Assembly: GCA_016125355.1 (NCBI GenBank)
Contig: WGLX01000011.1
Coordinates: 60,264-124,263 of the forward strand
Source of the DNA: Actinomycetales bacterium
Lineage (GTDB): Bacteria; Actinomycetota; Actinomycetes; S36-B12
Reading direction: 5' to 3'
Length of the DNA stretch: 64,000 bases
Shown here: positions 5,501 to 63,999 of the stretch, piece by piece
Position numbering within the stretch: position 1 is the first letter of the stretch
Layout of the letters: every line of letters begins with the position of its first letter
Program-made: the position numbers and the translations under genes
The notes under the pieces: generated by a model
Databases searched by the model: none
The model's input: the letters and a program-made list of their open reading frames with translations, nothing else
Told to the model about the DNA's origin: nothing

Positions 5501-6448
5501 ATGGCAGGGAACTCGCAGCGACGCGGCGCGATGCGCAAGTCGGGAACCAAGAAGGGCGCCACGGTGGGCAGCGGCGGACAGCGCCGGGCGAAGCTGCAGG
5601 GACGCGGTCCCACGCCGAAGGCCGTCGATCGGCCGCATCATCCGGCGGCCCGCCGCGAGCGTGCGGCGCAGAAGCGCGGCGCGTCGACCCAGCGTCGGTC
5701 CACGTCCGGCGGGGGGCGCAAGACCCAGGGCAGCATGCTCATGGGCCGCAATCCGATCGTCGAGGCCCTCCGCGTCGGCATCCCCGCCACGGCGCTGTAC
5801 GTGCAGGCGCGTGCCGAGGCGGACGACCGCTGGCGCGAGGCCATGCGTGCCGCCGTGGCGCAGGGCATCCCGCTCATGGAGGTCACCAAGGCGGAGCTCG
5901 ACCGGATGACCGATGGCGGTGTGCACCAGGGACTGGTGCTGACCGTGCCCGAGTACGACTACGCCGACCTGCACGACCTGACCACGGGGACGCTGCTGGT
6001 GGCGCTCGACGGTGTCACGGACCCCAGGAACCTCGGCGCCATCGCCCGCTCCGCGGCGGCGTTCGGCGCCGATGGGATCGTCATCCCGACCCGGCGCTCG
6101 GTCGGCGTCACGGCGGCAGCGTGGAAGACGTCGGCGGGAGCGCTCGCCCGGATCCCGGTGGCCCAGGTGACCAACATGACCCGCGCTCTCCAGGACCTGC
6201 AGAAGGAGGGGTTCACCGTCGTCGGCCTGTCCGCTGACGCAGATGCCGACCTTGCCACCCTGGCTGCCGACGTCCTGTCCGACCCCGTGGTTCTCGTGGT
6301 GGGTGCCGAGGGCGCCGGCCTGTCCCGGCTGGTTGGCGAGACCTGCGACTGGCGGGTCGCCATCCCCATGACCGACCAGATCGAGTCGCTGAACGCCTCA
6401 GTGGCGGCCAGCATCGTGCTTCACGCGGCGTTCGCAGCGCGCTCCTGA
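5501..6448 (+). CDS. rlmB: 23S rRNA (guanosine-2'-O-)-methyltransferase, SpoU/TrmH family (RlmB-like)
   Basis: Basic N-terminal extension plus SpoU core (DGVTDPRNLGAIARSA...VVGAEGAGLSRL...IPMTDQIESLNASVAASI). Conserved position after cysS. Confidence 0.88.
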   Translation: MAGNSQRRGAMRKSGTKKGATVGSGGQRRAKLQGRGPTPKAVDRPHHPAARRERAAQKRGASTQRRSTSGGGRKTQGSMLMGRNPIVEALRVGIPATALYVQARAEADDRWREAMRAAVAQGIPLMEVTKAELDRMTDGGVHQGLVLTVPEYDYADLHDLTTGTLLVALDGVTDPRNLGAIARSAAAFGADGIVIPTRRSVGVTAAAWKTSAGALARIPVAQVTNMTRALQDLQKEGFTVVGLSADADADLATLAADVLSDPVVLVVGAEGAGLSRLVGETCDWRVAIPMTDQIESLNASVAASIVLHAAFAARS

Positions 6449-7608
6449 TCGGGTGCGGACGGGGCCTTGACGAGGGCGTTGCCCATCAGCGGGAAGAAGA
6501 GCACCGTCAACGCTCCCGCCCCTACAAGGGCAGCGGCGTCCGTCGACGACATCGCGCCTGCACTCACCTCGACGGCCGTGACGGCCACGATGATCGGCAG
6601 GCCGGTCGCCACGTAGAGCGAGAAGCGGGCGCGTTCCCGGCGGTCCGGTATCGCCCGCCGGTAGAGCAGGTACTGCGTGAGGCCGCGAGCGACCGCGATG
6701 TAGAGGAAGAAGCGGATCATCGGCAGCGGGTCCTCGATGATCGAGCGGATGTCCAGCGTCGCCCCCGAGACGACGAAGAACAGCGGGATCAGGAACCCGA
6801 AGCCGATCGCCTCGATGCGTGTCTGCAGCGCGGACTCTCCGCCGGCCGGGGCGAAGCGGCGCACGATGACGCCCGCGATGAAGGCGCCGAGCACGACGTC
6901 GAGGCCGAACAGTCCCGCCATCGACAGCAGCAGGACGAGCAGCAGCATCGTGAAACGCAGCGCCGTCTGGGAGCTGGTGTTCTGCCCACGGGCGATGACC
7001 TCCCGGACGCGATCACCAGCGAACCGGGCGGGCAGAGTGGCCATGACGAAGGCGAGGACAGCGAAGGCCGCGAGGCTGAGGATCGCCGCGAACGAGGACT
7101 TCGTGCCCAGCAGGACGGAGATCGCGATGATCGGACCGAACTCGCCCCACGCGCCGGCGCCCATGAAGAAGGTGCCGAAGCGTGTGCCAAGCTCGCCGCG
7201 GTCCCTGATGATGGGCAGCAGCGTGCCCAACGCGGTCGACGTGAGGGCGATCGCGACGCCGATCGTGTCGTCGATCCGCCCCCGGTAGGACATGAGCAGG
7301 GCCGCGGCGATGGCGACGATGAGGGAGATCAGCCACCCGACTGCCGCGAGCTTGCCGCTCTGCCCGCGGATGGCCCGCTGCTCGAGTTCCATGCCGGCGA
7401 GGAAGAACAGCAGGCCGAGGCCGAGCTCGGAGAGCAGGGAGATGGAGTCGTCGATGACGATCCAGCCGAGGAGCTCGGGCCCGAAGAGGATGCCGGCGCC
7501 GAGTAGCAGGACCACCTCGGCGACCTTGATGCGGAACAGGCCGACGATGAGGGGGGTGAACGCGGCGATAGCCGTGATCACCAGCAGGGATCGGAACTCG
7601 TCGTGCAT
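6421..7608 (-). CDS. cation:proton antiporter (CPA-type), paralog 2
   Basis: 395-aa polytopic protein. ATG at 7608 with AGGAG 6 nt upstream. It aligns end to end with the neighbouring 395-aa paralog (shared SELGLG..FF.AG.EL, GAGAWGEFGPI, EAIGFGFLIP.FFVVSGA). The longer ORF start at 7803 was rejected. Confidence 0.85.
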   Translation of the reverse strand: MHDEFRSLLVITAIAAFTPLIVGLFRIKVAEVVLLLGAGILFGPELLGWIVIDDSISLLSELGLGLLFFLAGMELEQRAIRGQSGKLAAVGWLISLIVAIAAALLMSYRGRIDDTIGVAIALTSTALGTLLPIIRDRGELGTRFGTFFMGAGAWGEFGPIIAISVLLGTKSSFAAILSLAAFAVLAFVMATLPARFAGDRVREVIARGQNTSSQTALRFTMLLLVLLLSMAGLFGLDVVLGAFIAGVIVRRFAPAGGESALQTRIEAIGFGFLIPLFFVVSGATLDIRSIIEDPLPMIRFFLYIAVARGLTQYLLYRRAIPDRRERARFSLYVATGLPIIVAVTAVEVSAGAMSSTDAAALVGAGALTVLFFPLMGNALVKAPSAPDQERAANAA

Positions 7609-7640
7609 GACTGCTCCTAGGGTCGGCGCGAGGATCGTAG

Positions 7641-7772
7641 CGTCGAGACCGTCAGGTATCGGCGTTCGAGAGTCTGCGTCGAGACCGTCAGGTATCGGCG
7701 TTCGAGAGTCTGCGTCGAGACCGTCAGGTATCGGCGTTCGAGAGTCTGCGTCGAGACCGTCAGGTATCGGCG
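7641..7772. repeat. perfect 36-bp tandem repeat, 3 full copies plus a 24-bp partial copy
   Basis: The unit cgtcgagaccgtcaggtatcggcgttcgagagtctg occurs at 7641, 7677 and 7713, with a partial copy at 7749..7772. The partial copy is the true 3' end (GADT-stop) of CDS 7760..8947. Confidence 0.97.
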
Positions 7773-8947
7773 CCCGCAGCTTTCGCCGACACGGTGCGGC
7801 CACGGGTACGGAGGGCCTCGCCGAGCGCCGGGAACACGAGCACGGAGACCATGCCGGCTCCGACGAGCGCGGCGGCGGTCGACGGCAGCATCACGCCCGC
7901 CTCCACCTCGAGATTCGTGACCGCGACGATGATCGGCAGCCCGGTGGCGACCAGGAGCGAGAACCGCGCTCTCTCCCGGGGCTGGGGGAGTGCCCGCCAG
8001 TACAGGAAGAACTGGGGGAGGCCGCGCGCGGCGACGAGCACCAGCGTGAACGCGACCAGTCGCAGGGGGTTCTCCGCAATGGACGTGATGTTGAGCCTGG
8101 CGCCGGACACGACAAAGAACACCGGGATCAGGAAGCCGAAGCCGATGGCCTCGACCTTGCGCTCGAGGACCACCTCCCCGCCGGCGGGGAGGTATCGGCG
8201 AACGACCATGCCCGCGACGAAGGCCCCGAGGATGATGTCGAGGTCGAGCACCGCAGCGAGGACGAGCATCCCCACGATGAACGCGAGCGTGAGGCGGACG
8301 GGCGTCTGCGAGCTCGTGCCGTGGCCACGCACCCAGAGGCGTCGCATCGTCCGTGACATGAGGCGGCTCGGCAGGACAGCGATGATCAGCACGATGATGC
8401 CGAACATGACCAGCGTCAGGGCGGCGGCTGCTGACGACCGGGTGGTGAGGAGCAGCGCCATGGCGAAGATGGGGCCGAACTCGCCCCACGCGCCGGCGCC
8501 GACGAAGAGTCGCCCGAATCGGGTGCCCAGCTCGCCGTGGTCGCGGAGCCCGGGCAGGAGGGTGCCGAGCGCGGTGGAGCTGAGGGCGATCGCCATGGCG
8601 ATGCCGGCCACCACCCGGCCGGTGAGGACGAAGGCAGTGGACAGCGCCACGGCGACCGCGATCGAGATGGCCCACCCGGCCGCGGCGAGCCGTCCGGCCG
8701 GCCCCCGTAGGACGCGGAAGTCGAGTTCGAGACCGGCGATGAAGAAGAGCATCCCGAGGCCGAGCTCGGAGAGCAGCTCGATCGGCTCGTCGATGTGGAT
8801 CCAGTCCAGGACATAGGGCCCGCAGAGGATGCCTCCCAGCAGGAGGAAGACGACTCCCGTGACGCGGATGTTGAGCAGGCCGACGGCGATCGGAACGAGC
8901 GCCGAGATGACGAGGATGACGAACAGGGACCCCAGGCCGTCGATCAT
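7760..8947 (-). CDS. cation:proton antiporter (CPA-type), paralog 1
   Basis: 395-aa polytopic membrane protein. Its start overlaps the stop of the upstream DUF4032 gene (ATGA at 8944..8947). Confidence 0.85.
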   Translation of the reverse strand: MIDGLGSLFVILVISALVPIAVGLLNIRVTGVVFLLLGGILCGPYVLDWIHIDEPIELLSELGLGMLFFIAGLELDFRVLRGPAGRLAAAGWAISIAVAVALSTAFVLTGRVVAGIAMAIALSSTALGTLLPGLRDHGELGTRFGRLFVGAGAWGEFGPIFAMALLLTTRSSAAAALTLVMFGIIVLIIAVLPSRLMSRTMRRLWVRGHGTSSQTPVRLTLAFIVGMLVLAAVLDLDIILGAFVAGMVVRRYLPAGGEVVLERKVEAIGFGFLIPVFFVVSGARLNITSIAENPLRLVAFTLVLVAARGLPQFFLYWRALPQPRERARFSLLVATGLPIIVAVTNLEVEAGVMLPSTAAALVGAGMVSVLVFPALGEALRTRGRTVSAKAAGADT

Positions 8948-22268: not shown

Positions 22269-22306
22269 CCTGCCCCCTGTCGCCGTAGCCTGACGCGTCC
22301 GTGCAG

Positions 22307-22378
22307 AGCCCCCGGTCAGGTTTGAACTGACGACCTACCGCTTACAAGGCGGTTGCTCTACCACTGAGCTACAGGGGC
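22307..22378 (-). tRNA. tRNA-Thr (anticodon UGU)
   Basis: Manual cloverleaf: acceptor GCCCCTG/CGGGGGC, D arm GCTC-AGTGGTA-GAGC, anticodon arm ACCGC-CTTGTAA-GCGGT, T arm GTCAG-TTCAAAC-CTGAC, discriminator T. No encoded CCA. Confidence 0.9.
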
Positions 22379-22413
22379 GGAGGCCCCACGATACCGAGCA
22401 GCCTCGCCCGCAC

Positions 22414-22498
22414 CCCCCGCGAGTTGAACCGCTTCCCGGTTCAGTTCTGCAGAACTGAACCGGGTTCGCGGATAATCCGACGAATTGGGCCGCTTCCC
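22414..22498 (+). repeat. palindromic repeat element, family E, copy 1
   Basis: ccccccgcGAGTTGAACCGCTTCCCGG-ttcagttCTGCAGaactgaa-CCGGGttcGCGG, followed by a second GAATTGGGCCGCTTCCC motif. The perfect 30-bp palindrome spans 22435..22464. Confidence 0.9.
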
Positions 22499-22577
22499 CT
22501 CGAGCCGTGGCGTGGAGCCGACACCGATCCGGCACGGTCGACCCCGTGTCGATCAGGCGGTCCAAATCCCCAGTTCC

Positions 22578-22637
22578 CCCGCGAAACCGGCTCAAATCTG
22601 CAGATTTGAGCCGGGAAGCGGTTCAACTCGTGGGGAG
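22578..22637 (-). repeat. palindromic repeat element, family E, copy 2 (inverted relative to copy 1)
   Basis: The reverse complement reads ctccccacGAGTTGAACCGCTTCCCGG-ctcaaatCTGCAGatttgag-CCGGtttcGCGGG. Its outer motif supplies the last codons and the TGA of CDS 22623..23615. Confidence 0.9.
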
Positions 22638-23615
22638 GGCGAGGAAGGTCTGGGCGTTGGTGGTCAGCAGTCGGGTGGTCAGCTCCTCGTCGAGGTCGGC
22701 GGAGCGGATGACGGCCCCGGCCGGCCGTTCGCCGAGCGGATAGGGGTAATCGCTGCCGAGCAGGACCCGGTCGGTGCCGTGAACGTCGAGGAGCACCCGC
22801 AGCGACGTCGGGCTGAACACCACGGAATCCACGTAGACCCGCGAGGCGTAGGCGCTCGGCGGCCGTTCGCTGTCCGCGCCGACGAGGTCCCGGCGCTGCT
22901 CCCAGGCGTTGTCGGCCCGCCCGGTCCAGTAGGCGTACGAGCCGCCACCGTGGGCGAATCCGATGCGCAGTGACTCCGGCAGCCGGTCGAAGGCGCCGGA
23001 GAGGGCCAGCGACAGCAGGCTGAGCTGCGTCTCGGCCGGCATCCCCACGAGCCACTGCAGCATCCAGCGGTCGAGGCGCTCGCTGGTGGCCATGTCCCAC
23101 GGATGGACGAACACCGGGACGCCGCGGTCCGCGCAATGCTGGAGGAAGTCGACGATGGCGCCACTGTCGAGGTCGCGGTCGCCGACGTGGTTGCCGATCT
23201 CGACTCCGCGATGCCCGTTCTCGATGCACCGATCCAGCTCACGGCAGGCCGCATACGTGTCCTGCAAGGGCACCTGGCAGAACGGGATCAGCCGATCCGG
23301 CGCCTGCTCCGTCACGCTGAGCGCCAGGTCGTTGAAGATGCCGGCGACGCGCGCGCCGTCCGCCGGCGAGCGGTCGTACCCGAAGAACACCGGCGTTGGC
23401 AGGACCACCTGCTGGTCGATGCCGTCGGCATCCATGTCCGCGAGCCTCGTGTCCGCGTTCCAGCAGGCATCCGTGATGCGGCGGAACTCGCGGTCGCCCA
23501 GCATGATCGTGGCACCCGTCTCGGAGTCCATGCGCAGCCACGGATCCTCGGGCGAGCCGAGGTCGGGCCAGCCGGGCGGCACGACGTGCGTGTGCACGTC
23601 GACGACGGGGGACAC
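22623..23615 (-). CDS. nbaD: 2-amino-3-carboxymuconate-6-semialdehyde decarboxylase (amidohydrolase superfamily, ACMSD)
   Basis: N-terminal metal motif VDVHTHVVPP. 330 aa. The amidohydrolase_2 pattern and its position after the 3-hydroxyanthranilate dioxygenase gene fit ACMSD. Confidence 0.8.
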   Translation of the reverse strand: MSPVVDVHTHVVPPGWPDLGSPEDPWLRMDSETGATIMLGDREFRRITDACWNADTRLADMDADGIDQQVVLPTPVFFGYDRSPADGARVAGIFNDLALSVTEQAPDRLIPFCQVPLQDTYAACRELDRCIENGHRGVEIGNHVGDRDLDSGAIVDFLQHCADRGVPVFVHPWDMATSERLDRWMLQWLVGMPAETQLSLLSLALSGAFDRLPESLRIGFAHGGGSYAYWTGRADNAWEQRRDLVGADSERPPSAYASRVYVDSVVFSPTSLRVLLDVHGTDRVLLGSDYPYPLGERPAGAVIRSADLDEELTTRLLTTNAQTFLALPTS

Positions 23616-30766: not shown

Positions 30767-32641
30767 ATGCAGGAACTGATCTCCCGCTTCGGCGGGACGC
30801 CCGCATTGATCCTCAAGATCCTGTTCCTCGGCGTCATCAACGCCGCCGCCATCTGGGCGATCCCCGCCCTGATCGGCACCGAGAACTGGGTGATGCTCGG
30901 CATCCTCGTCGTGACGACCGCCGGCATCGACTTCTTCTTGCTGGCCCGTCGTTTCGTGCCGGGCAAGTACGTCGTCATCGGCGCCTCGCTCCTTCTGATC
31001 TTCCAGATCATCCCCATCCTGTACACGGTGGCCATCGCCTTCACCAACTACTCGACCGGACACATCGGCACGAAGGACGAGGCGATCGCGACCATCCAGC
31101 GCGACTCCCTCTCCGAGGGCGACAACGCCATCTCCTACGACATGCTGCCGCTGTACGCGGAGGGCCAGAAGGTGGTGCTGGCTCTCACCGAAGTCCCCAC
31201 GGACACCGGTGACCAGACGGCCGCCGACAACGCGCCCGACCTGGGGCAGTCGGAATCGGGGACACAGACCGAGTTCGGCCCCAGCGATGCGGCGTCGCCC
31301 GAGGCGAGCGTGCAGACGGAGTTCGGCCCCACCGGCGACACGGCGTCCGCCGAGCCGAGTGTTCAGACGGAGTTCGGCCCCGGCACGGACACCGCGTCGG
31401 CGGAGCCGAGCGTGCAGACCGAGTTCGGCCCCGGCGAGGTCAGCAGCACGGCCCCGAGCCCGGACGCCTCCTCCGGAACCGACATGAACGTCGTGACGCC
31501 GGAGCCCCCGGGCGGCTGGCCGCCCACCTACATCGGGACGAACCAGGGCCTTGACCCGGTTCCTCCGGGCGACGTCCAGCGAGACGAGTTCGGCACGGTC
31601 ATCGGAGTCACCGGCTACCAGACCGTTCCCGAGGCCGACTACCCGAACCTCGACACCGCGATCGCGAACATCAAGGTGCCCGGACCGACGGGTGGCTACA
31701 TCACGGCCCAGGGCTTCGACTCCGCCGTCGAGCTGACGCCGACCGTCACCTATGACGCGGCCTCCGACACCTTCACGAACATCCAGACCGGGGCCGTCTA
31801 CGTCGACAACAACAAGGGCTCCTTCGTCAACCAGGACAACCCCGAGGACGAACTGCTCCCGGGCTGGCGGGCGAATATCGGCTGGACCAACTTCGCGTCG
31901 ATCGTGACCAACCCGGACGTCAGCGGGCCGTTCGTCTACGTGTTCCTCTGGACGTTCGCCTATGCGCTGCTCACCGTCCTGCTGACCTTCACGGCCGGGC
32001 TCGGCCTCGCCATCACGCTGAACAAGCCGGGGATGCGCGGCCAGCGGATCTATCGGGCTCTCCTGATCGTCCCCTACGCCGTTCCGGCCTTCCTCAGCGC
32101 GCTCGTGTTCGCGGGCCTGCTGAATGACGACTTCGGGGCCATCAACCAGACGTTCGGCATCAGCATCCCGTGGCTGTTCGACCCGTTCTGGGCCAAGGTG
32201 AGCTGCCTCATGCTGAACTTCTGGCTCGGCGTCCCCTACATGTTCCTCATCTCGACGGGAGCACTCCAGGCAATTCCCAGCGAACTCCAGGAGGCGGCCC
32301 GCATCGACGGGGCCCGCAACTTCCAGGTCTTCCGCCTGGTGAACCTGCCGCTCCTGCTGGTCGCCTTGACCCCGCTTCTGGTCGCGTCCTTCGCATTCAA
32401 CTTCAACAACTTCAACAACATCTACCTGCTCACCGGCGGTGGACCGGCCATCGAGGGCTCGCCCATCGCCGGCGCGACGGACATCCTGATCAGTTACACC
32501 TACAAGATCGCGTTCGCCGCCGGCAAGGGCAATGACTACGGCCTGGCCAGTGCCATCTCGATCATCATCTTCCTGATCGTCGGAGGCATCTCCGCGACCA
32601 TGTTCGCCAGATCGAAGGCCCTACGGGAGGAGCGGTCATGA
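30767..32641 (+). CDS. ABC sugar permease, MalF-like, with a very large extracytoplasmic insert
   Basis: 624 aa. N-terminal TM helices, then an insert of roughly 290 aa, then the MalF-type core with an EAA-like loop (EAARIDGARNFQVFRLVNLP). Confidence 0.88.
   Translation: MQELISRFGGTPALILKILFLGVINAAAIWAIPALIGTENWVMLGILVVTTAGIDFFLLARRFVPGKYVVIGASLLLIFQIIPILYTVAIAFTNYSTGHIGTKDEAIATIQRDSLSEGDNAISYDMLPLYAEGQKVVLALTEVPTDTGDQTAADNAPDLGQSESGTQTEFGPSDAASPEASVQTEFGPTGDTASAEPSVQTEFGPGTDTASAEPSVQTEFGPGEVSSTAPSPDASSGTDMNVVTPEPPGGWPPTYIGTNQGLDPVPPGDVQRDEFGTVIGVTGYQTVPEADYPNLDTAIANIKVPGPTGGYITAQGFDSAVELTPTVTYDAASDTFTNIQTGAVYVDNNKGSFVNQDNPEDELLPGWRANIGWTNFASIVTNPDVSGPFVYVFLWTFAYALLTVLLTFTAGLGLAITLNKPGMRGQRIYRALLIVPYAVPAFLSALVFAGLLNDDFGAINQTFGISIPWLFDPFWAKVSCLMLNFWLGVPYMFLISTGALQAIPSELQEAARIDGARNFQVFRLVNLPLLLVALTPLLVASFAFNFNNFNNIYLLTGGGPAIEGSPIAGATDILISYTYKIAFAAGKGNDYGLASAISIIIFLIVGGISATMFARSKALREERS
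31261..31433 (+). repeat. in-frame imperfect tandem repeat inside the MalF-like insert (TEFGP x4)
   Basis: The peptide reads QTEFGPSDAASPEASVQTEFGPTGDTASAEPSVQTEFGPGTDTASAEPSVQTEFGPG. The DNA copies differ mostly at third codon positions. Confidence 0.9.
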
Positions 32642-35392: not shown

Positions 35393-36563
<1,171 letters not shown>

Positions 36564-36577
<14 letters not shown>

Positions 36578-38687: not shown

Positions 38688-38784
38688 CGCGATCGGTGCG
38701 CGACACACGGGACGGTTCGCCCATCGAGGCCGTTCGTGCATAGCATCGGTGGCGGACATGCTGTTCGCAAAGGAAGGTAGACAC

Positions 38785-40041
38785 GTGCGGAAGCTGACCC
38801 GGACCCTGGTGGCCGCCACCGTCCTCGCTCTGGTGAGCACGGGCGTGGTGGTCGCTCCGCCCGCCCAGGCGGCGGACTCGATCGTCATCTGGTCGGATCC
38901 GGCGCACGCCCCCGTGCTCCAGCAGCTGCTGGGTGCCAGCTACGACGGCACGCCCGTCACCGTGGTCACGAAGGACCCGGCGACCGTGCGGAACGACCTC
39001 GCGACGGTCCGGCCGGCCGAGGCGCCGGACGTCGTGTGGGGTGATCTTGCGTGGACGGGGGAGCTCGCGTCGTCGCAGCTGATCGTTCCCATCACCATGA
39101 AGAAGAAGCGGCGTGGCCAGTTCCGTCCCAACGTCCTGGCCGGCTCGAACGTGGGCGGGGATCTCTACGGCCTCCCCGTGCAGATCAGCAACCTGGCCCT
39201 CGTCACGAACACGACCCTGGTCCCGCAGCAGCCGACGACGTTCAAGGCTCTCGAGGACCTCGCGTTGAAGCTGAAGAAGAACAAGAAGGCCCGGGTGCCG
39301 TTCGCCCTCGCCCAGAGCGACGGCACCTCGCCGTGGTCCACCTACCCGCTGTTCAGCGGCCTGGGCGGCTACCTGTTCGGCAAGACGTCGAACGGGAGCC
39401 TGAACGTCAAGGACATCGGCCTGGCGAACAAGAAGTTCCTCGGCAACAGCAGCTGGATCGGCCAGTGGAACAGCAGCGGCCTGATCGACTCCTCGCTCAC
39501 GCAGGACCGGGCGAAGACCGTGTTCAAGAAGGGCAACTCGGCCTTCTTCCTGGCTGGTCCGGAGGATCTCGAGTACCTCATGGGTCTCGGCTTCGCCTAC
39601 CGCATCGGGGCGCTGCCTCCGATCGTCAACGGCATCAAGCCGGTGCCGCTGCTCACGGTGCACGGGCTCATGGTGACGAAGTTCGCGGCGAAGCACGGAG
39701 TTGAGGACAAGGCGCTGGCCCTGGTCGGGAAGCAACTGTCCGGCGCCAAGCCTCAGCAGGCCCTGGCGGGTGCGCAGGGGTGGTTCCCCGCCAACAAGCG
39801 GGCGGCCGGAACCGTGCCGACCGGCGGCGGACGGATCCGCGCCATCGGCAACGCGGGCGTCGACGGGGTACCGATGCCGAACGTGCCAGAGGCCGGCGTG
39901 CTGTGGGGTCCGTACGCGACCGCGTGGACGACATCGACGAGCGGCTCCGGAGCCACCAAGGCCAAGAAGGCCTTCAAGAAGGCCCAGCGGCAGGCCACCA
40001 CGGGGCTGTCCGGCGGGACCAGCCCCTCCACCTCCGGCTGA
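38785..40041 (+). CDS. second MalE-like ABC substrate-binding protein (paralog of 29421..30659)
   Basis: GTG at 38785 is preceded by AAGGAAGG; the ORF-track start is 38749. Signal peptide present. It aligns with the first binding protein (YPLFSGLGGY.FG...GS.NVKD.GL.NK.F). Confidence 0.85.
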   Translation: MRKLTRTLVAATVLALVSTGVVVAPPAQAADSIVIWSDPAHAPVLQQLLGASYDGTPVTVVTKDPATVRNDLATVRPAEAPDVVWGDLAWTGELASSQLIVPITMKKKRRGQFRPNVLAGSNVGGDLYGLPVQISNLALVTNTTLVPQQPTTFKALEDLALKLKKNKKARVPFALAQSDGTSPWSTYPLFSGLGGYLFGKTSNGSLNVKDIGLANKKFLGNSSWIGQWNSSGLIDSSLTQDRAKTVFKKGNSAFFLAGPEDLEYLMGLGFAYRIGALPPIVNGIKPVPLLTVHGLMVTKFAAKHGVEDKALALVGKQLSGAKPQQALAGAQGWFPANKRAAGTVPTGGGRIRAIGNAGVDGVPMPNVPEAGVLWGPYATAWTTSTSGSGATKAKKAFKKAQRQATTGLSGGTSPSTSG

Positions 40042-40045
40042 CCCC

Positions 40046-40131
40046 CTCCCCACGAGTTGAACCGCTTCCCGGCTCACATCTGCAGATGTGAGCCGGGATC
40101 GCGGTGGTTCTGCGGATTTGAGCCGCTTGCC
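40046..40131 (+). repeat. palindromic repeat element, family E, copy 3
   Basis: ctccccacGAGTTGAACCGCTTCCCGG-ctcacatCTGCAGatgtgag-CCGGGatcGCGG, then GGATTTGAGCCGCTTGCC. It starts 5 nt after the binding-protein stop. Confidence 0.9.
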
Positions 40132-40235: not shown

Positions 40236-40262
40236 TTTGCACTCGGGGGGCTGGAGTGCTAA
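40236..40262. promoter_or_regulatory. CIRCE (HrcA operator) copy 1, slightly degenerate
   Basis: tTtGCACTC-N9-GAGTGCTAA compared with the consensus TTAGCACTC-N9-GAGTGCTAA. Confidence 0.85.
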
Positions 40263-40270
40263 CTTCGCTG

Positions 40271-41960
<1,690 letters not shown>

Positions 41961-41968
41961 TCCTCAAG

Positions 41969-42010
41969 GAGGGGAGGGCCGGGATCCGACAGGATCCCGG
42001 CCCTCCCCTC
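41969..42010 (+). terminator. groEL terminator hairpin (19-bp perfect stem, GACA loop)
   Basis: gaggggagggccgggatcc-gaca-ggatcccggccctcccctc begins 9 nt after the groEL stop and is followed by atttcg. Confidence 0.8.
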
Positions 42011-42018
42011 ATTTCGTC

Positions 42019-42074
42019 GACTGCTACGCCATTCACGGCATGGATGCCCCCTTGCGACGAATGCCGTAGCAGTC
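42019..42074. repeat. long-stem hairpin repeat, family D, copy 1 (left arm degenerate)
   Basis: gactgctacgccattcacggcatgg-atgccc-ccttgcgacgaatgccgtagcagtc. Its end overlaps the stop codon of CDS 42073..42996. Confidence 0.85.
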
Positions 42075-42996
42075 ACCGGAGCAGGGCCGCGCGCAGTTTC
42101 CGCTCGAGGGTCGGTCCGCCGCGGGCCAGGTCGCTCCAACCCCAACGGATGACGACCAGGCCCAGCGCCCGGAGCCGATCCTCCCGCCGCTTCTCCGCGT
42201 ACAGCGCCTCACGGGTGTCGTACTTCACCTGCCCGTCAGCCTCGCCGACCACGCGCGCGTGCGCCCACCAGAAGTCGACTCGACCGACGAACCCCTCCTG
42301 ATCCCAGAACTCGTGCTGGAGCTCGGGAGCAGGGAGTCCCCACTCGTGGAAGCGGGCGGCCGACCAGGATTCCAGGGCAGTCTCCCGCAGGCCGCTGAGC
42401 AAGGGAAGGGCGGCGGCCGCCCGGCGCCTCCCGCGCACGCCGCCGAGACGGTCGAGGACTGCGGCCGCGTCGACGACGTCAAGGCAGCCGTTGCGAACCG
42501 CGCGATCGCCCGCGGCCAGGGCGTCCCGGAGTGGCAGGGTTCGCGCGACGTCTACCCACGTTCGGGCCGACGTCGTCAGGCGCACTCCGGTGTCGGCCAC
42601 GTCCTCGCCGGCCAGGGTCAACTGGCGATATCGCACACCGTCGCGGATTCCCGTCCAGGCTCCAGGCGGTACGGCCAACTGAACGAGGTCCGGCGGTGGG
42701 CTGACCAGGGGGAGTCCGTCCACGATGGCGGCCGACTCGAACGCGACGACAGCCTGCTCGTGACGCCGGACGGCTGCTGCCGCGCGCAGAGCGTGCTCCA
42801 CGCGTTCAGCGCTATGGAGATCCAGGCCCCGGGGGCCAGCGACCCGGCGCAGGTACATCCCGGTCTGGAGCACCTGCCACTGCCCGCTGCGGACCCGATG
42901 CTGGATCTGGCCGTCGGACAGACCCGCGGACAGGGCCTGCCTCCGGGAGACCAGGAAGCCGAGGATGGGTGGGTCGGGCGCGGTGAGTCGGGGCAT
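42073..42996 (-). CDS. DUF559/endonuclease-like protein with an AbiEi-type N-terminal wHTH domain
   Basis: N-terminus LVSRRQALSAGLSDGQIQHRVRSGQWQVLQTGMY and C-terminus GRVDFWW...GEADGQVKY...REDRLRALGLVVIRWGWSDL are typical of this very common actinobacterial family. A TTG alternative start lies at 43008. Confidence 0.7.
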   Translation of the reverse strand: MPRLTAPDPPILGFLVSRRQALSAGLSDGQIQHRVRSGQWQVLQTGMYLRRVAGPRGLDLHSAERVEHALRAAAAVRRHEQAVVAFESAAIVDGLPLVSPPPDLVQLAVPPGAWTGIRDGVRYRQLTLAGEDVADTGVRLTTSARTWVDVARTLPLRDALAAGDRAVRNGCLDVVDAAAVLDRLGGVRGRRRAAAALPLLSGLRETALESWSAARFHEWGLPAPELQHEFWDQEGFVGRVDFWWAHARVVGEADGQVKYDTREALYAEKRREDRLRALGLVVIRWGWSDLARGGPTLERKLRAALLR

Positions 42997-43063
42997 GCCG
43001 CGACCCAAACCGGTAGACGGTCCCTCGGCAACCGCCCATCCACAGCTTCCCCGCCAGGCATCT

Positions 43064-43119
43064 CACTGCTACGGCATTCGTCGCAAGGCGGGGCCGTTGC
43101 GACGAATGCCGTAGCAGTC
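43064..43119. repeat. long-stem hairpin repeat, family D, copy 2 (perfect 22-bp stem)
   Basis: actgctacggcattcgtcgcaa-ggcggggccg-ttgcgacgaatgccgtagcagt, 12 nt downstream of the msiK-like stop on the minus strand. Confidence 0.9.
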
Positions 43120-43131
43120 GGGGGTGGGGGG

Positions 43132-44202
<1,071 letters not shown>

Positions 44203-44556
44203 GCTGACTCCTTCTACCGGCAGGAACGTGCCGGACGATCCGAAGTGGAAGGTGCGCCCGGGCGGGCGCTGGCACCACCGTAGCGAAGACCGGGCGTGGA
44301 GGGGAGCGGCTCGGCCCGTTCCGATGTCCGGTCGGCACGGTGGGACGGGTGCCTCCCGTGCAACTCGTTTACATGAATCCCATCAGCGCCGGTATATCAA
44401 ATCGTGATGTATTTGTTGCTTTTCGGGCGCCTGCAGGGGTTGCGACAGGCAACGGGGGCGCGAAAGGATGACAGCGTTTACGTCGCCCCGGAACATGGGC
44501 AGACGCAGCATCGACGGGGACCTTCCCCGTCGAATCCGATCAGGCAAGGAGAATCC

Positions 44557-51794: not shown

Positions 51795-51868
51795 GCCCCT
51801 GTAGTCCAATTGGCAGAGACACCCGGCTTAAACCCGGCACAGTGTGGGTTCAACTCCCACCGGGGGCA
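51795..51868 (+). tRNA. atypical class-I-shaped tRNA with anticodon UAA (formally Leu/UUA); identity uncertain
   Basis: Manual fold: acceptor GCCCCTG/CGGGGGC, D stem GTC/GAC with an AATTGGCA-type loop, anticodon stem CCGG/CCGG plus a C27:C43 mismatch, loop CTTAAAC, 5-nt variable loop ACAGT, T arm GTGGG-TTCAACT-CCCAC, discriminator A. Confidence 0.65.
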
Positions 51869-51907
51869 CGGAGTGGCCCCGCATGGGACCGGGGGCACGG
51901 AGTGGCC
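51859..51907 (+). repeat. 20-nt direct repeat duplicating the tRNA 3' end (period 29 nt)
   Basis: accgggggcacggagtggcc occurs at 51859..51878 (last 10 nt of the tRNA plus 10 nt of flank) and again at 51888..51907. Confidence 0.95.
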
Positions 51908-62726: not shown

Positions 62727-62751
62727 AACGGGCAAGGCTACCCAACACGCC

Positions 62752-62807
62752 GACTGCTACCGCATTCGTCACAAGGTTGGTCCCTTGTGACGAATCACGT
62801 AGCAGTC
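62752..62807. repeat. long-stem hairpin repeat, family D, copy 3
   Basis: gactgctaccgcattcgtcacaagg-ttggtc-ccttgtgacgaatcacgtagcagtc. Its end overlaps the stop codon of the vWA gene. Confidence 0.88.
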
Positions 62808-63999
62808 AGCGGCGACGGGAGCGCACGTAGTCGGTGACGACGTACTCGCCGAGCCGTTCGCCGGACACCGCCAGCACCCGGCCGCCGTTGCGTCGCGCCA
62901 GGCCATCGAGGAAGCGGGCCAGCCCCGGCTCGTCTCCTAGTCGGAACCACGAGATCGGCACCCGGCGCCGCGTCATCCGATCCACCTGGGCGACGGTCTC
63001 CTCGATCGTCTCCATGGACGGCGGCCACGAGAACCAGCCCTCGCCCGACGGGAGCAGGTGGGCTGTCGGCTCGCCGTCCGTGACCACCATGACGATCCGC
63101 TGGGCACCCGGGTGCCGGTCGAGGAACTGGCCGGCCAGCATGAGCGCGTGCTGGAGGTTCGTGCCCTGCACGTGGCTGGCCTCGAGGTTCGGCAGCTCAT
63201 GCGGATGGACGATCCGCGCGACGTTGGCGAACGCGATCACCTGGAGGGCATCGAGCGGGTAGGCCGTGGACGCCAGTGAGTGCAGGGCGAGCGCCATCGT
63301 CTTGGCGTCGCGCCACGTGTCGTTCATGACCATGGAAAACGACTGGTCGATGAGCAGCGCCACCGCCGCCCGCGTGACCGTCTCGGTCTCGTGCACCTCG
63401 AAGTCGTCTGCGCGCAGCCGGGCGTCGTCGGCCGGATCCACGAGCCGCCGCGTCACGGCGTTGCGCAAGGTGCGGACGACGTCGACGGGCTGCTCGTCGC
63501 CGAACTCCCACGGCCGACTGGTGCCCGTCGTCTCGCCCGAGGCGCCAGACCGGTGGATCTCGTGGTTGCCCTGAGTGGCCCCGTCGAGGGAGTCGAACAC
63601 CTCGCGCAGGGCCGTGCGCCCGATGCGCCGGATCGCCTTGGGAGACAGCTGCAGCGTCTCGCCGTCGTTGAGGAGGTACCCCTGGCGTTCCAGCTCGCGC
63701 TGCAGCTCGCGCAAGGCCTCCAGGTCGTCGCGCGCCCCCCGGCCCAGTGCCCGCTCGACGGCCTGCTCGTCGATGGTCTCCAGGTCCGTCCGCGCGAAGC
63801 CCTCGCCGAGCTCGTCCGAGAGTTGCTCCAGTTCCGCCAGCTCGGCCAGGGCTTCAGTCGCGTCCGGCAGGCCGAGCCGCTGCTCTCCGGACATCGACTG
63901 CTGCCCACTCCAGCTGAACTCGGGCCGGAGGGCCTGGAGGTTCTCCTGGAGGGCCGACATCTCCGACTGGAGGTCCAGATCCGACAGTGCCTGCTCCAT
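62806..63999 (-). CDS. vWA-domain protein (MoxR-partner type), probably 5'-truncated by the window edge
   Basis: MIDAS-like DQSFSM ... VMVVTDGEPT pattern in the C-terminal half. The ORF stays open to the last full codon of the window. Confidence 0.75.
   Translation of the reverse strand: MEQALSDLDLQSEMSALQENLQALRPEFSWSGQQSMSGEQRLGLPDATEALAELAELEQLSDELGEGFARTDLETIDEQAVERALGRGARDDLEALRELQRELERQGYLLNDGETLQLSPKAIRRIGRTALREVFDSLDGATQGNHEIHRSGASGETTGTSRPWEFGDEQPVDVVRTLRNAVTRRLVDPADDARLRADDFEVHETETVTRAAVALLIDQSFSMVMNDTWRDAKTMALALHSLASTAYPLDALQVIAFANVARIVHPHELPNLEASHVQGTNLQHALMLAGQFLDRHPGAQRIVMVVTDGEPTAHLLPSGEGWFSWPPSMETIEETVAQVDRMTRRRVPISWFRLGDEPGLARFLDGLARRNGGRVLAVSGERLGEYVVTDYVRSRRR

Follow-up and report, generated by a model that had tools for sequence, protein, structure and literature searches.

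A short palindromic element at positions 40046-40131 of a 64,000-nucleotide (nt) stretch of DNA from an Actinomycetales bacterium (contig WGLX01000011.1; the whole stretch is hereafter the window) lies between a gene for a solute-binding protein and groEL. On balance, this element, copy 3 of its kind in the window, is likely to belong to a family of small interspersed palindromic repeats that are non-autonomous and work like repetitive extragenic palindromic (REP) sequences and REP doublets forming hairpins (REPINs), or like hairpin-bearing miniature inverted-repeat transposable elements (MITEs). The family occurs in several genomes, where its members are gained and lost at orthologous sites, are placed at stop codons, fill gaps between convergent genes as doublets and carry hairpins whose arms covary.

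Three copies of one palindromic unit in the window

The pattern CCGG-N7-CTGCAG-N7-CCGG occurs exactly three times in the window, at 22436-22463 (plus strand), 22587-22614 and 40069-40096, against 0.00 occurrences in dinucleotide shuffles. All three palindromes are preceded by an identical 19-mer, GAGTTGAACCGCTTCCCGG, which still yields three matches in the window when three mismatches are allowed (0.01 expected). As the preliminary description of this DNA had proposed and our pattern search confirmed, each palindrome is perfect, with heptads that differ from copy to copy: TTCAGTT/AACTGAA in copy 1, CTCAAAT/ATTTGAG in copy 2 and CTCACAT/ATGTGAG in copy 3. Similarity extends over 84 nt at 79% between copies 1 and 3 and over 86 nt at 87% between copies 2 and 3.

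Across 40046-40131, copy 3 runs through TGAccCCCTCCCCAC, GAGTTGAACCGCTTCCCGG, CTCACAT, CTGCAG, ATGTGAG, CCGG, GATCGCGGTGGTTCTGCG and GATTTGAGCCGCTTGCC. Its C-rich prefix CCCTCCCCAC (40044..40053, plus strand), which is the same in copy 2, leads into the 19-mer M1 (40054..40072, plus strand), the last four bases of which are the hairpin foot. The hairpin (40061..40105, plus strand), delimited by folding, pattern and alignment, comprises a 14-bp upper stem with a TGCA loop (40067-40080 paired with 40085-40098) that includes the two heptad arms, and a 5-bp lower stem, ACCGC/GCGGT (40061-40065 with 40101-40105). A second, direct motif copy, M2 (40115..40131, plus strand), closes this solo unit, so that the direct copies in M1, right arm and M2 are spaced by 31 and 30 nt. 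M2 had been noted earlier as a degenerate repetition of the outer motif and is real, occupying columns 65-76 of the family alignment described below, with CCG invariant. The predicted fold of copy 3 reaches -50.7 kcal/mol (z = -5.1), and the opposite strand is equally foldable. The position assigned to this copy, between a stop codon and the groEL operators, likewise held: the solute-binding-protein gene (38749..40041, plus strand; PF13416, PF01547) stops at 40039-40041, the prefix starts at 40044 and the stem begins 26 nt past the stop codon. The first of two CIRCE (controlling inverted repeat of chaperone expression) operators follows at 40236, that is, 104 nt past the element end; both operators and the promoter-like site of groEL (40236..40297, plus strand) are outside the element.

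Copies 1 and 2 face each other at a second locus, adjoining the gene for tRNA-Thr(TGT) (22306..22378, minus strand), and form an inverted doublet, a quasi-palindrome of ~230-240 nt (22405..22645). Copy 1 (22415..22498, plus strand; M1 at 22421-22439, palindrome at 22436-22463, M2 at 22482-22498) scored 89.7 bits with a covariance model of the element, and copy 2 (22554..22639, minus strand; M1 at 22629-22611, palindrome at 22614-22587, M2 at 22568-22557) scored 88.9 bits. Self-comparison of the doublet revealed 92-nt arms that are 76% complementary, and as DNA it folds into one long hairpin of -84.1 kcal/mol (z = -10.4). The inverted symmetry runs outward to CCTCGCCC on both sides (22405-22420 and 22630-22660), and the left-side stretch overlaps native coding sequence of the neighbouring amidohydrolase gene, with TTCCTCG conserved in relatives. 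Because of this overlap, copy 1 may derive from an inverted duplication that took in copy 2 and part of its flank, and not from a separate insertion.

The neighbouring tRNA drew attention to a possible tRNA link, either as an integrase attachment (att) site or as a tRNA-derived origin. This is unsupported: the doublet lies on the 5' side of the tRNA, and four other stretches that carry the element (L002, L004, L006 and L007) are without a tRNA. As a separate observation, the covariance model of the element gave a weak 16-bit match at 51811-51859 (minus strand), within tRNA-Leu (51795-51869), where the motif resembles the reverse complement of the T-arm (GGGAGTTGAA); this likeness could be due to chance or hint at the origin of the element.

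The family in related genomes

We scanned public genome and metagenome collections with the 19-mer alone, leaving the hairpin free. Matches were found in 17 genome stretches and 38 metagenome stretches, about 12 of the former and ~20 of the latter being chance hits in coding or low-GC DNA with no hairpin, which were discarded; one match in a viral contig was also a chance hit in low-GC DNA. True relatives with the exact 19-mer came from two metagenome-assembled genomes (MAGs) in GTDB (four contigs) and from ~16 metagenome contigs. The carriers are the MAG 'uncultured bacterium MFD00032.bin.3.338' (L002, L006 and L007), a Ca. Nanopelagicales MAG (L004) and the metagenomes Ga0316576, Ga0209254 and others, with at least 13 exact 19-mers in contigs of a single metagenome. 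In homologue searches, the closest GroEL relatives of the source organism were Nanopelagicales-type MAGs. The hosts are uncultured high-G+C Actinomycetota of freshwater and soil related to Ca. Nanopelagicales.

Twenty-four units outside the window were gathered from these MAGs and metagenomes, and 26 units could be aligned over 88 columns with zero gaps. Conservation of the 19-mer is not an artefact of the search, since copies found by proximity, that is, by fuzzy search around the seeds, differ from it at 1-2 of 19 positions, with five of the seven arm positions varying. Units are built, in this order, from a C-rich prefix, the conserved 19-mer handle, a 13-14-bp hairpin with arms that are free in sequence yet complementary, and a second copy of a 12-nt motif. 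This motif, GAnnTGnnCCG(C/G), recurs in both orientations 4-5 times per element, ~30 nt apart: the first 12 nt of the 19-mer are its copy in M1, the hairpin arms are one inverted and one direct copy, and M2 adds another direct copy. In the family, M1 is commonly preceded by a CCCC tract at a distance of 2-8 nt, the loops are often non-palindromic (CTGAAG, CGGCAG and CTGAGG in the alignment), and the stem is followed by TTTC in many units or by GATC. Solo units are closed by a direct M2 (copy 3, L006, L030, L037, L050 and L052). Double-ended elements are closed by an inverted 19-mer and measure 88 bp (L002, L007, L027, L032, L043, L044, L048, L051 and L058), 149 bp (L004, L033 and L031) or ~210 bp (the window doublet, 22421-22629). 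As to density, the 64-kb window contains three elements and L058 (21.6 kb) contains one, with no element present in L057 (15.6 kb) or L059 (21.3 kb).

Gain and loss at orthologous sites

At the locus of the doublet, two relatives with the same gene order (L065 and L066; 86% protein identity) have no element: their sequence passes through TTCCTCGGCCGACGGTAG, the amidohydrolase ends in TAG and, after 22 nt, tRNA-Thr begins. The window reads TTCCTCGCCCTCCCCAC, then the doublet, from GAGTTGA to TCAACTC, followed by GCGGGGGGTG, TCGGTATCGTGG and the tRNA. The 230-bp doublet replaces the last codons of the amidohydrolase and changes the C-terminus from GRR* to ALPTS*, the stop now being a TGA inside M1 of copy 2 (22625-22623). 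The resulting product has 330 residues, with a Pfam match at residues 5-325, and the public annotation of this MAG holds the same 330-aa product (P0121).

The spacer between the binding-protein gene and groEL, which in the window holds the solo unit copy 3, also varies. In L058 (GroEL 97% identical), an 88-bp double-ended element occupies the position of copy 3 behind the same TGACCCCTCC prefix, with the handle GATTTGCACCGCTTCCCGG and the perfect arms CTCAACT/AGTTGAG, which differ from those of the window by two adjacent changes per arm, all compensated. In L057 (GroEL 99%), the spacer measures 107 nt, contains both CIRCE operators and lacks the element. L064 (GroEL 96%) also lacks it, having nothing but a small native hairpin there, one that can still be recognised in the window 3' of copy 3, and L060-L062 (GroEL 97%) carry at the copy 3 site (~2830-2900) an unrelated hairpin with a 20-bp stem (GCTGCGTCACTTGTTGGGGT...ACCCCAACAAATGACGCAGC). 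Within the empty spacer of L057 (9893-9912), the 9-mer GTTTCGCGG equals the element consensus just 3' of the stem and may be the scar of a deleted element, a chance match having a probability of ~1% by rough estimate. The CIRCE operators are retained in the relatives without the element, and since both persist in its absence, the element is not tied to groEL control.

No direct target-site duplication was visible in either comparison of filled and empty sites. At both loci the flanks continue the inverted symmetry, with CCA and TGG on the two sides in L058 and CCCCAC and GCGGGG in the window, which are inverted and not direct repeats.

Placement at gene ends

We judged coding frames near the elements by a test of GC content at third codon positions (GC3). 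A coding-like frame considered real in this way abuts 24 of the 37 element ends, with its stop codon -34 to +4 nt from M1; two binding-protein genes, flagged as doubtful only for their Pro/Gly-rich tails, add to this count. All copies lie outside genes or at the very gene end, and four genes use the TGA inside M1 as their stop codon. Solo units point in the same direction as the upstream gene, and doublets typically fill the entire gap between convergent genes (L004, L044, L048, L051 and others). The flanking genes have no common function (kynurenine pathway, sugar uptake, chaperonin, kinase and others), and copy 1 follows no gene.

Several contigs end inside an element (L070, L020, L041 and L050). 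L070, a Logan contig with an identical amidohydrolase, stops one base past the 19-mer (1262-1275), where copies 2 and 3 soon start to differ. Ending at the 19-mer is what assemblers do at multi-copy repeats, and the repeat may be under-represented in MAGs.

This placement is also what would be expected if the hairpins were RNA structures selected by the host, either U-tract-poor intrinsic terminators or 3'-end stabilisers that insulate neighbouring genes, their spread in copies being incidental and the covariation a result of selection on the RNA stem. We regard this as possible, albeit rather unlikely. The units start 0-34 nt after stop codons, co-directionally with the upstream gene, and doublets lie between convergent genes; some hairpin, of different families, follows the binding-protein stop in several relatives, strong hairpins that differ in sequence also come after groEL, and a short T-rich TTTC comes after the stem in many units. 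However, the corresponding site is free of the element in L057 and L064 (the latter with its small native hairpin), there is no U-tract, G.U and A.C mismatches are equally frequent (12 each) and leave no one-strand signature, and copy 1 has no gene to terminate. A host-selected RNA structure also leaves unexplained why the 19-mer handle and M2 are conserved in sequence across distant hosts.

Covariation of the hairpin arms

Over the 26 aligned units, the 13-bp stem is 85% paired, and the whole 17-pair structure contains 23 double-change cells as compared with 8.6 +/- 2.2 in shuffled alignments, none of 500 shuffles reaching the observed count. When the window copies were left out, the arms and closing pair of the remaining 24 units were 86% paired, with 18 double-change cells against 6.6 +/- 2.1, again unmatched in 500 shuffles. 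Sliding the partner column by 1-3 positions made both the pairing and the double-change measures collapse in either alignment. Most double changes fall in four arm pairs, and perfect stems are formed by at least 13 different arm sequences. The correlated arm changes first noticed in the three window copies are therefore also a property of the larger alignment, with or without those copies.

Other parts of the preliminary description fared less well. Its statement that selection is clearly acting on the structure is right in that the arms covary beyond chance, but overstated, given that 14 of the 26 stems are imperfect and that mismatches of the G.U type on the motif strand are as numerous as those of the A.C type, which are G.U on the other strand; the equal counts give no sign of selection on an RNA of one polarity. 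Nor is structure alone constrained, as had been said with regard to the arm sequence, for the 19-mer, which includes the hairpin foot, is constrained in sequence too. The lower stem CCGC/GCGG, described as conserved, is so in the three window copies, but across the 26 units it is paired in 56% of cells, and it has no scope for covariation because its left side lies inside the 19-mer used for finding the copies.

Template switching between the arms can give the same paired pattern without selection on each substitution (PMC8794818). That mirrored changes can arise in this manner weakens the argument that every substitution was individually selected, and such switching may be part of what maintains the perfect palindromes. 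As a complete explanation, a mutational process in which intrastrand template switching or gene conversion copies one arm onto the other, with no selection involved, is unlikely. The creation and repair of perfect stems with multi-base 'compensatory' changes is documented (PMC8794818), the window and L058 differ by an adjacent two-base change mirrored on the other arm, as one switch event would leave it, and the mismatch types lack strand asymmetry in stems that are either perfect or have several mismatches. Such a process would account for the upkeep of palindromy, but not for the existence of the family, its spread or the fixed 19-mer, and as the loops are often non-palindromic, conversion would have to stop at the loop each time. 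It complements the reading of the element as a mobile repeat. Collectively, the covariation reflects a structural constraint or a palindrome-restoring process in a dispersed repeat that is gained and lost, not a locus-specific functional site; insertion, with empty sites in close relatives, marks it as that of a REP/REPIN-like repeat and not of a local regulator of the binding-protein gene or groEL.

Protein binding and local regulation as unlikely alternatives

The recurrence of the motif could also be read as an array of sites for a DNA-binding protein, either nucleoid-associated or a global regulator, that recognises GAnnTGnnCCG and binds the palindrome as a dimer. The GA, TG and CCG positions are the same in M1, both arms and M2, the 31- and 30-nt distances between the direct repeats in M1, right arm and M2 correspond to about three helical turns, and the positions of both copy 3 and the L058 element are shortly before the groEL promoter. 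Yet a dimer reading the sequence does not need the free positions of its half-sites to be complementary, as they are; the flanking genes have no common function, close relatives lack the element in the same promoter region, and placement tracks stop codons, not promoters. We therefore consider protein sites very unlikely to be the basis of the family.

A cis-regulatory RNA or small RNA specific to this locus, serving the binding-protein operon or the heat-shock control of groEL, is exceedingly improbable: copy 3 does lie between the binding-protein stop and CIRCE and folds stably, but the same element follows unrelated genes, it has no Rfam match, and at this locus it is absent from genomes in which GroEL is 96-99% identical and both CIRCE operators are retained; these empty orthologous sites largely refute the idea. 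Two further candidates were rejected on comparison with their consensus sequences. By eye, the GTTGAAC/GTTCAAC ends have their order reversed relative to the R''/R' core sites of an integron attC, and the L004 hairpin TTGAGT-N8-ACTCAA has the wrong spacing for the HspR operator HAIR (HspR-associated inverted repeat), the arms of other units being different.

A probable mobile repeat and how it might propagate

If the family is a mobile repeat of the REP/REPIN or MITE kind, its members would be copied by an enzyme acting in trans that reads handle and hairpin, probably on single-stranded DNA in the manner of IS200/IS605-type transposases or of REP-associated tyrosine transposases (RAYTs). Reading of single-stranded DNA would explain the fixed handle, the stem of free sequence and the absent target-site duplication, and the hairpin is probably needed for propagation. 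Once placed 3' of a gene, the GC-rich hairpin probably serves as a terminator-like or 3'-end-protecting RNA structure, as its position suggests, and a role of this sort would explain why insertions survive only at the 3' ends of genes in these compact genomes.

A number of observations weigh against this reading. About 50 open reading frames (ORFs) of the window include no mobilising enzyme and have housekeeping roles (kynurenine pathway, sugar ABC systems, glycosidases, GroEL, GreA and others), and the genes between the facing units of L006 and L030, which are separate solo units ~1 kb apart, are ordinary, with no transposase among them. We saw no transposition intermediate, nor any very recent within-population polymorphism. 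The hairpin is no canonical terminator or promoter: no T-run follows it, and no terminator-like or promoter-like site was called in either element region. In the 14 imperfect units, 1-5 pairs in the arms or the loop-closing pair are non-Watson-Crick, and the stem constraint is accordingly not universal. REP/REPIN systems have tens to hundreds of copies per genome; the counts here cover stretches of genomes, with three copies in the 64-kb window and one in the 21.6 kb of L058. As to the missing target-site duplication, the flanks of the empty sites have diverged (78-86% protein identity) and insertion boundaries are inexact, such that a short duplication may have escaped notice.

A more specific version of the mobile repeat can be envisaged, to which we attach a low probability. 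In it, the family would be the visible half of a REPIN-like replicator that persists vertically in streamlined Actinomycetota and is served by an enzyme other than a known RAYT, and its modular motif would give it a host role in supplying stop codons and bidirectional terminators between closely packed genes. The direct and inverted copies of the motif, spaced by ~30 nt, permit alternative pairings (M1 with the left arm, left with right arm, and M2 with the terminal motif). As for effects on the host, in 2015 Liang, Rudd and Deutscher reportedly found an influence on translation termination for E. coli REPs located at most ~15 nt from a stop codon. By analogy, an effect of this type could apply to the copies that overlap a stop codon, but not to copy 3, the stem of which begins farther downstream.

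If confirmed, these data would extend the REP/REPIN-like families by one in the Nanopelagicales-related Actinomycetota, a lineage for which metagenomes are almost the sole source of knowledge, and the element would mark a cause of assembly breaks and of changed gene ends, one gene having received its stop codon from it. They also warn that stem covariation in dispersed repeats is not evidence for a locus-specific regulatory RNA. The 19-mer could be used as bait for the enzyme that would copy the element. What is known about the regulation of groEL or of sugar transport does not change.

Other repeats and neighbours in the window

A second family of long-hairpin repeats was observed at 42015-42086, 43060-43131 and 62748-62819 of the window and at ~11690-11750 of L058. 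Its outer arms are conserved (GACTGCTACG...CGTAGCAGTC) and its inner stem is variable but complementary, and its members also sit at gene ends, namely after groEL, after the gene for an MsiK-like ATPase and beside greA. As this repeat follows groEL in the window and L058 and is absent in L057, it too is gained and lost. Independently of it, a perfect hairpin with a stem of ~15-21 bp comes directly after the groEL stop in every relative examined (L057, L058, L064 and L060). The one in the window (41969-42010) has a 19-bp stem, and stem sequences differ between genomes; this hairpin has the look of a native terminator in which structure is retained and sequence turns over.

Tandem repeats occur at two places. 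A 36-nt unit (GCGTCGAGACCGTCAGGTATCGGCGTTCGAGAGTCT) is present in four copies, of which three are identical, at 7604-7772, where two paralogous genes for Na+/H+ exchangers meet (6421-7803 and 7760-8947, both on the minus strand). Three 51-nt repeats (31281-31433; 78-82% identical) within an ABC permease gene (30767-32641), in its long N-terminal region, are probably a coding repeat. The Rfam msiK RNA (RF01747, 56 bits) was found at 44202-44260 (minus strand), immediately 5' of the gene for the MsiK-like ABC ATPase (43132-44202). This ATPase has a paralogue encoded at 35393-36577, which accounts for the long inverted similarity that links 35446-36122 with 43467-44143.

Comparison with known systems

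The preliminary description had left room for the element to be an already described repeat or terminator. No Rfam family matched the element at gathering thresholds in a search of the whole window, and at E <= 10 the hits in the two element regions were limited to generic hairpin (miRNA) models, which scored 15-25 bits where the cut-offs are 74-90. Our literature search found nothing relevant on the motif, on REP/RAYT or MITEs in Actinobacteria or on palindromes of Nanopelagicales. Neither search matched a described family, and the element is best read as belonging to an undescribed one, of the familiar REP/REPIN- or MITE-like kind.

U-tract-poor ('I-shaped') intrinsic terminators have been proposed for Actinobacteria, and the element resembles them in its GC-rich perfect stem right after a stop codon and its weak or absent U-tract. 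Terminators, in contrast, do not normally form a dispersed family in which different loci and genomes have a 19-mer and an 88-nt layout in common, nor are they gained and lost as insertions of 88-230 bp.

Bacterial MITEs with structured cores include the Neisseria Correia elements, ERIC/IRU and RUP. The double-ended elements agree with these in size (88-240 bp), in perfect terminal inverted repeats of at least 19 nt that extend into CCCC-containing flanks, in insertion polymorphism between related genomes and in lying at gene ends, where they may affect termination and mRNA processing. They differ in that no target-site duplication is visible at the two compared loci and that there is no known parent insertion sequence sharing their ends; among the fetched loci, no inverted pair of 19-mers encloses a transposase gene, no systematic search having been made. 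Moreover, solo units end in a direct and not an inverted motif copy, and the internal stem shows covariation, for which plain MITE models have no need.

The REP/REPIN sequences of Proteobacteria, mobilised by RAYT (TnpA_REP), are closest. A GTAG-type tetranucleotide at the 5' stem foot is typical of enterobacterial and pseudomonad REPs, whereas the conserved region of the element has no GTAG and its stem foot is TTCCCGG. The element differs further in that its conserved part is a 19-mer with the 12-nt motif repeated 4-5 times per element, in that no RAYT or other Y1/HUH transposase was found among the ~50 window ORFs, and in its hosts, Actinomycetota MAGs, a phylum for which we found no reports of REPIN/RAYT in the literature. 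The defining partner in a REP/REPIN system is a single-copy RAYT gene that the repeats flank in the same genome; the part of the source genome covered here is 64 kb. The two are alike in being short extragenic palindromes with a conserved sequence beside the stem, and in occurring as singlets and as inverted doublets that form one long hairpin. Both are sited after genes and between convergent genes, lack a target-site duplication and show the same conserved sequence in MAGs of different taxonomic labels. Compensatory changes across the hairpin are common in REPINs (PMC3116915), and the element shows them too. Together, the handle, the free but complementary stem, the singlets and doublets, the position at gene ends, the absence of target duplication and the gain and loss of copies match the element to REP/REPIN sequences.

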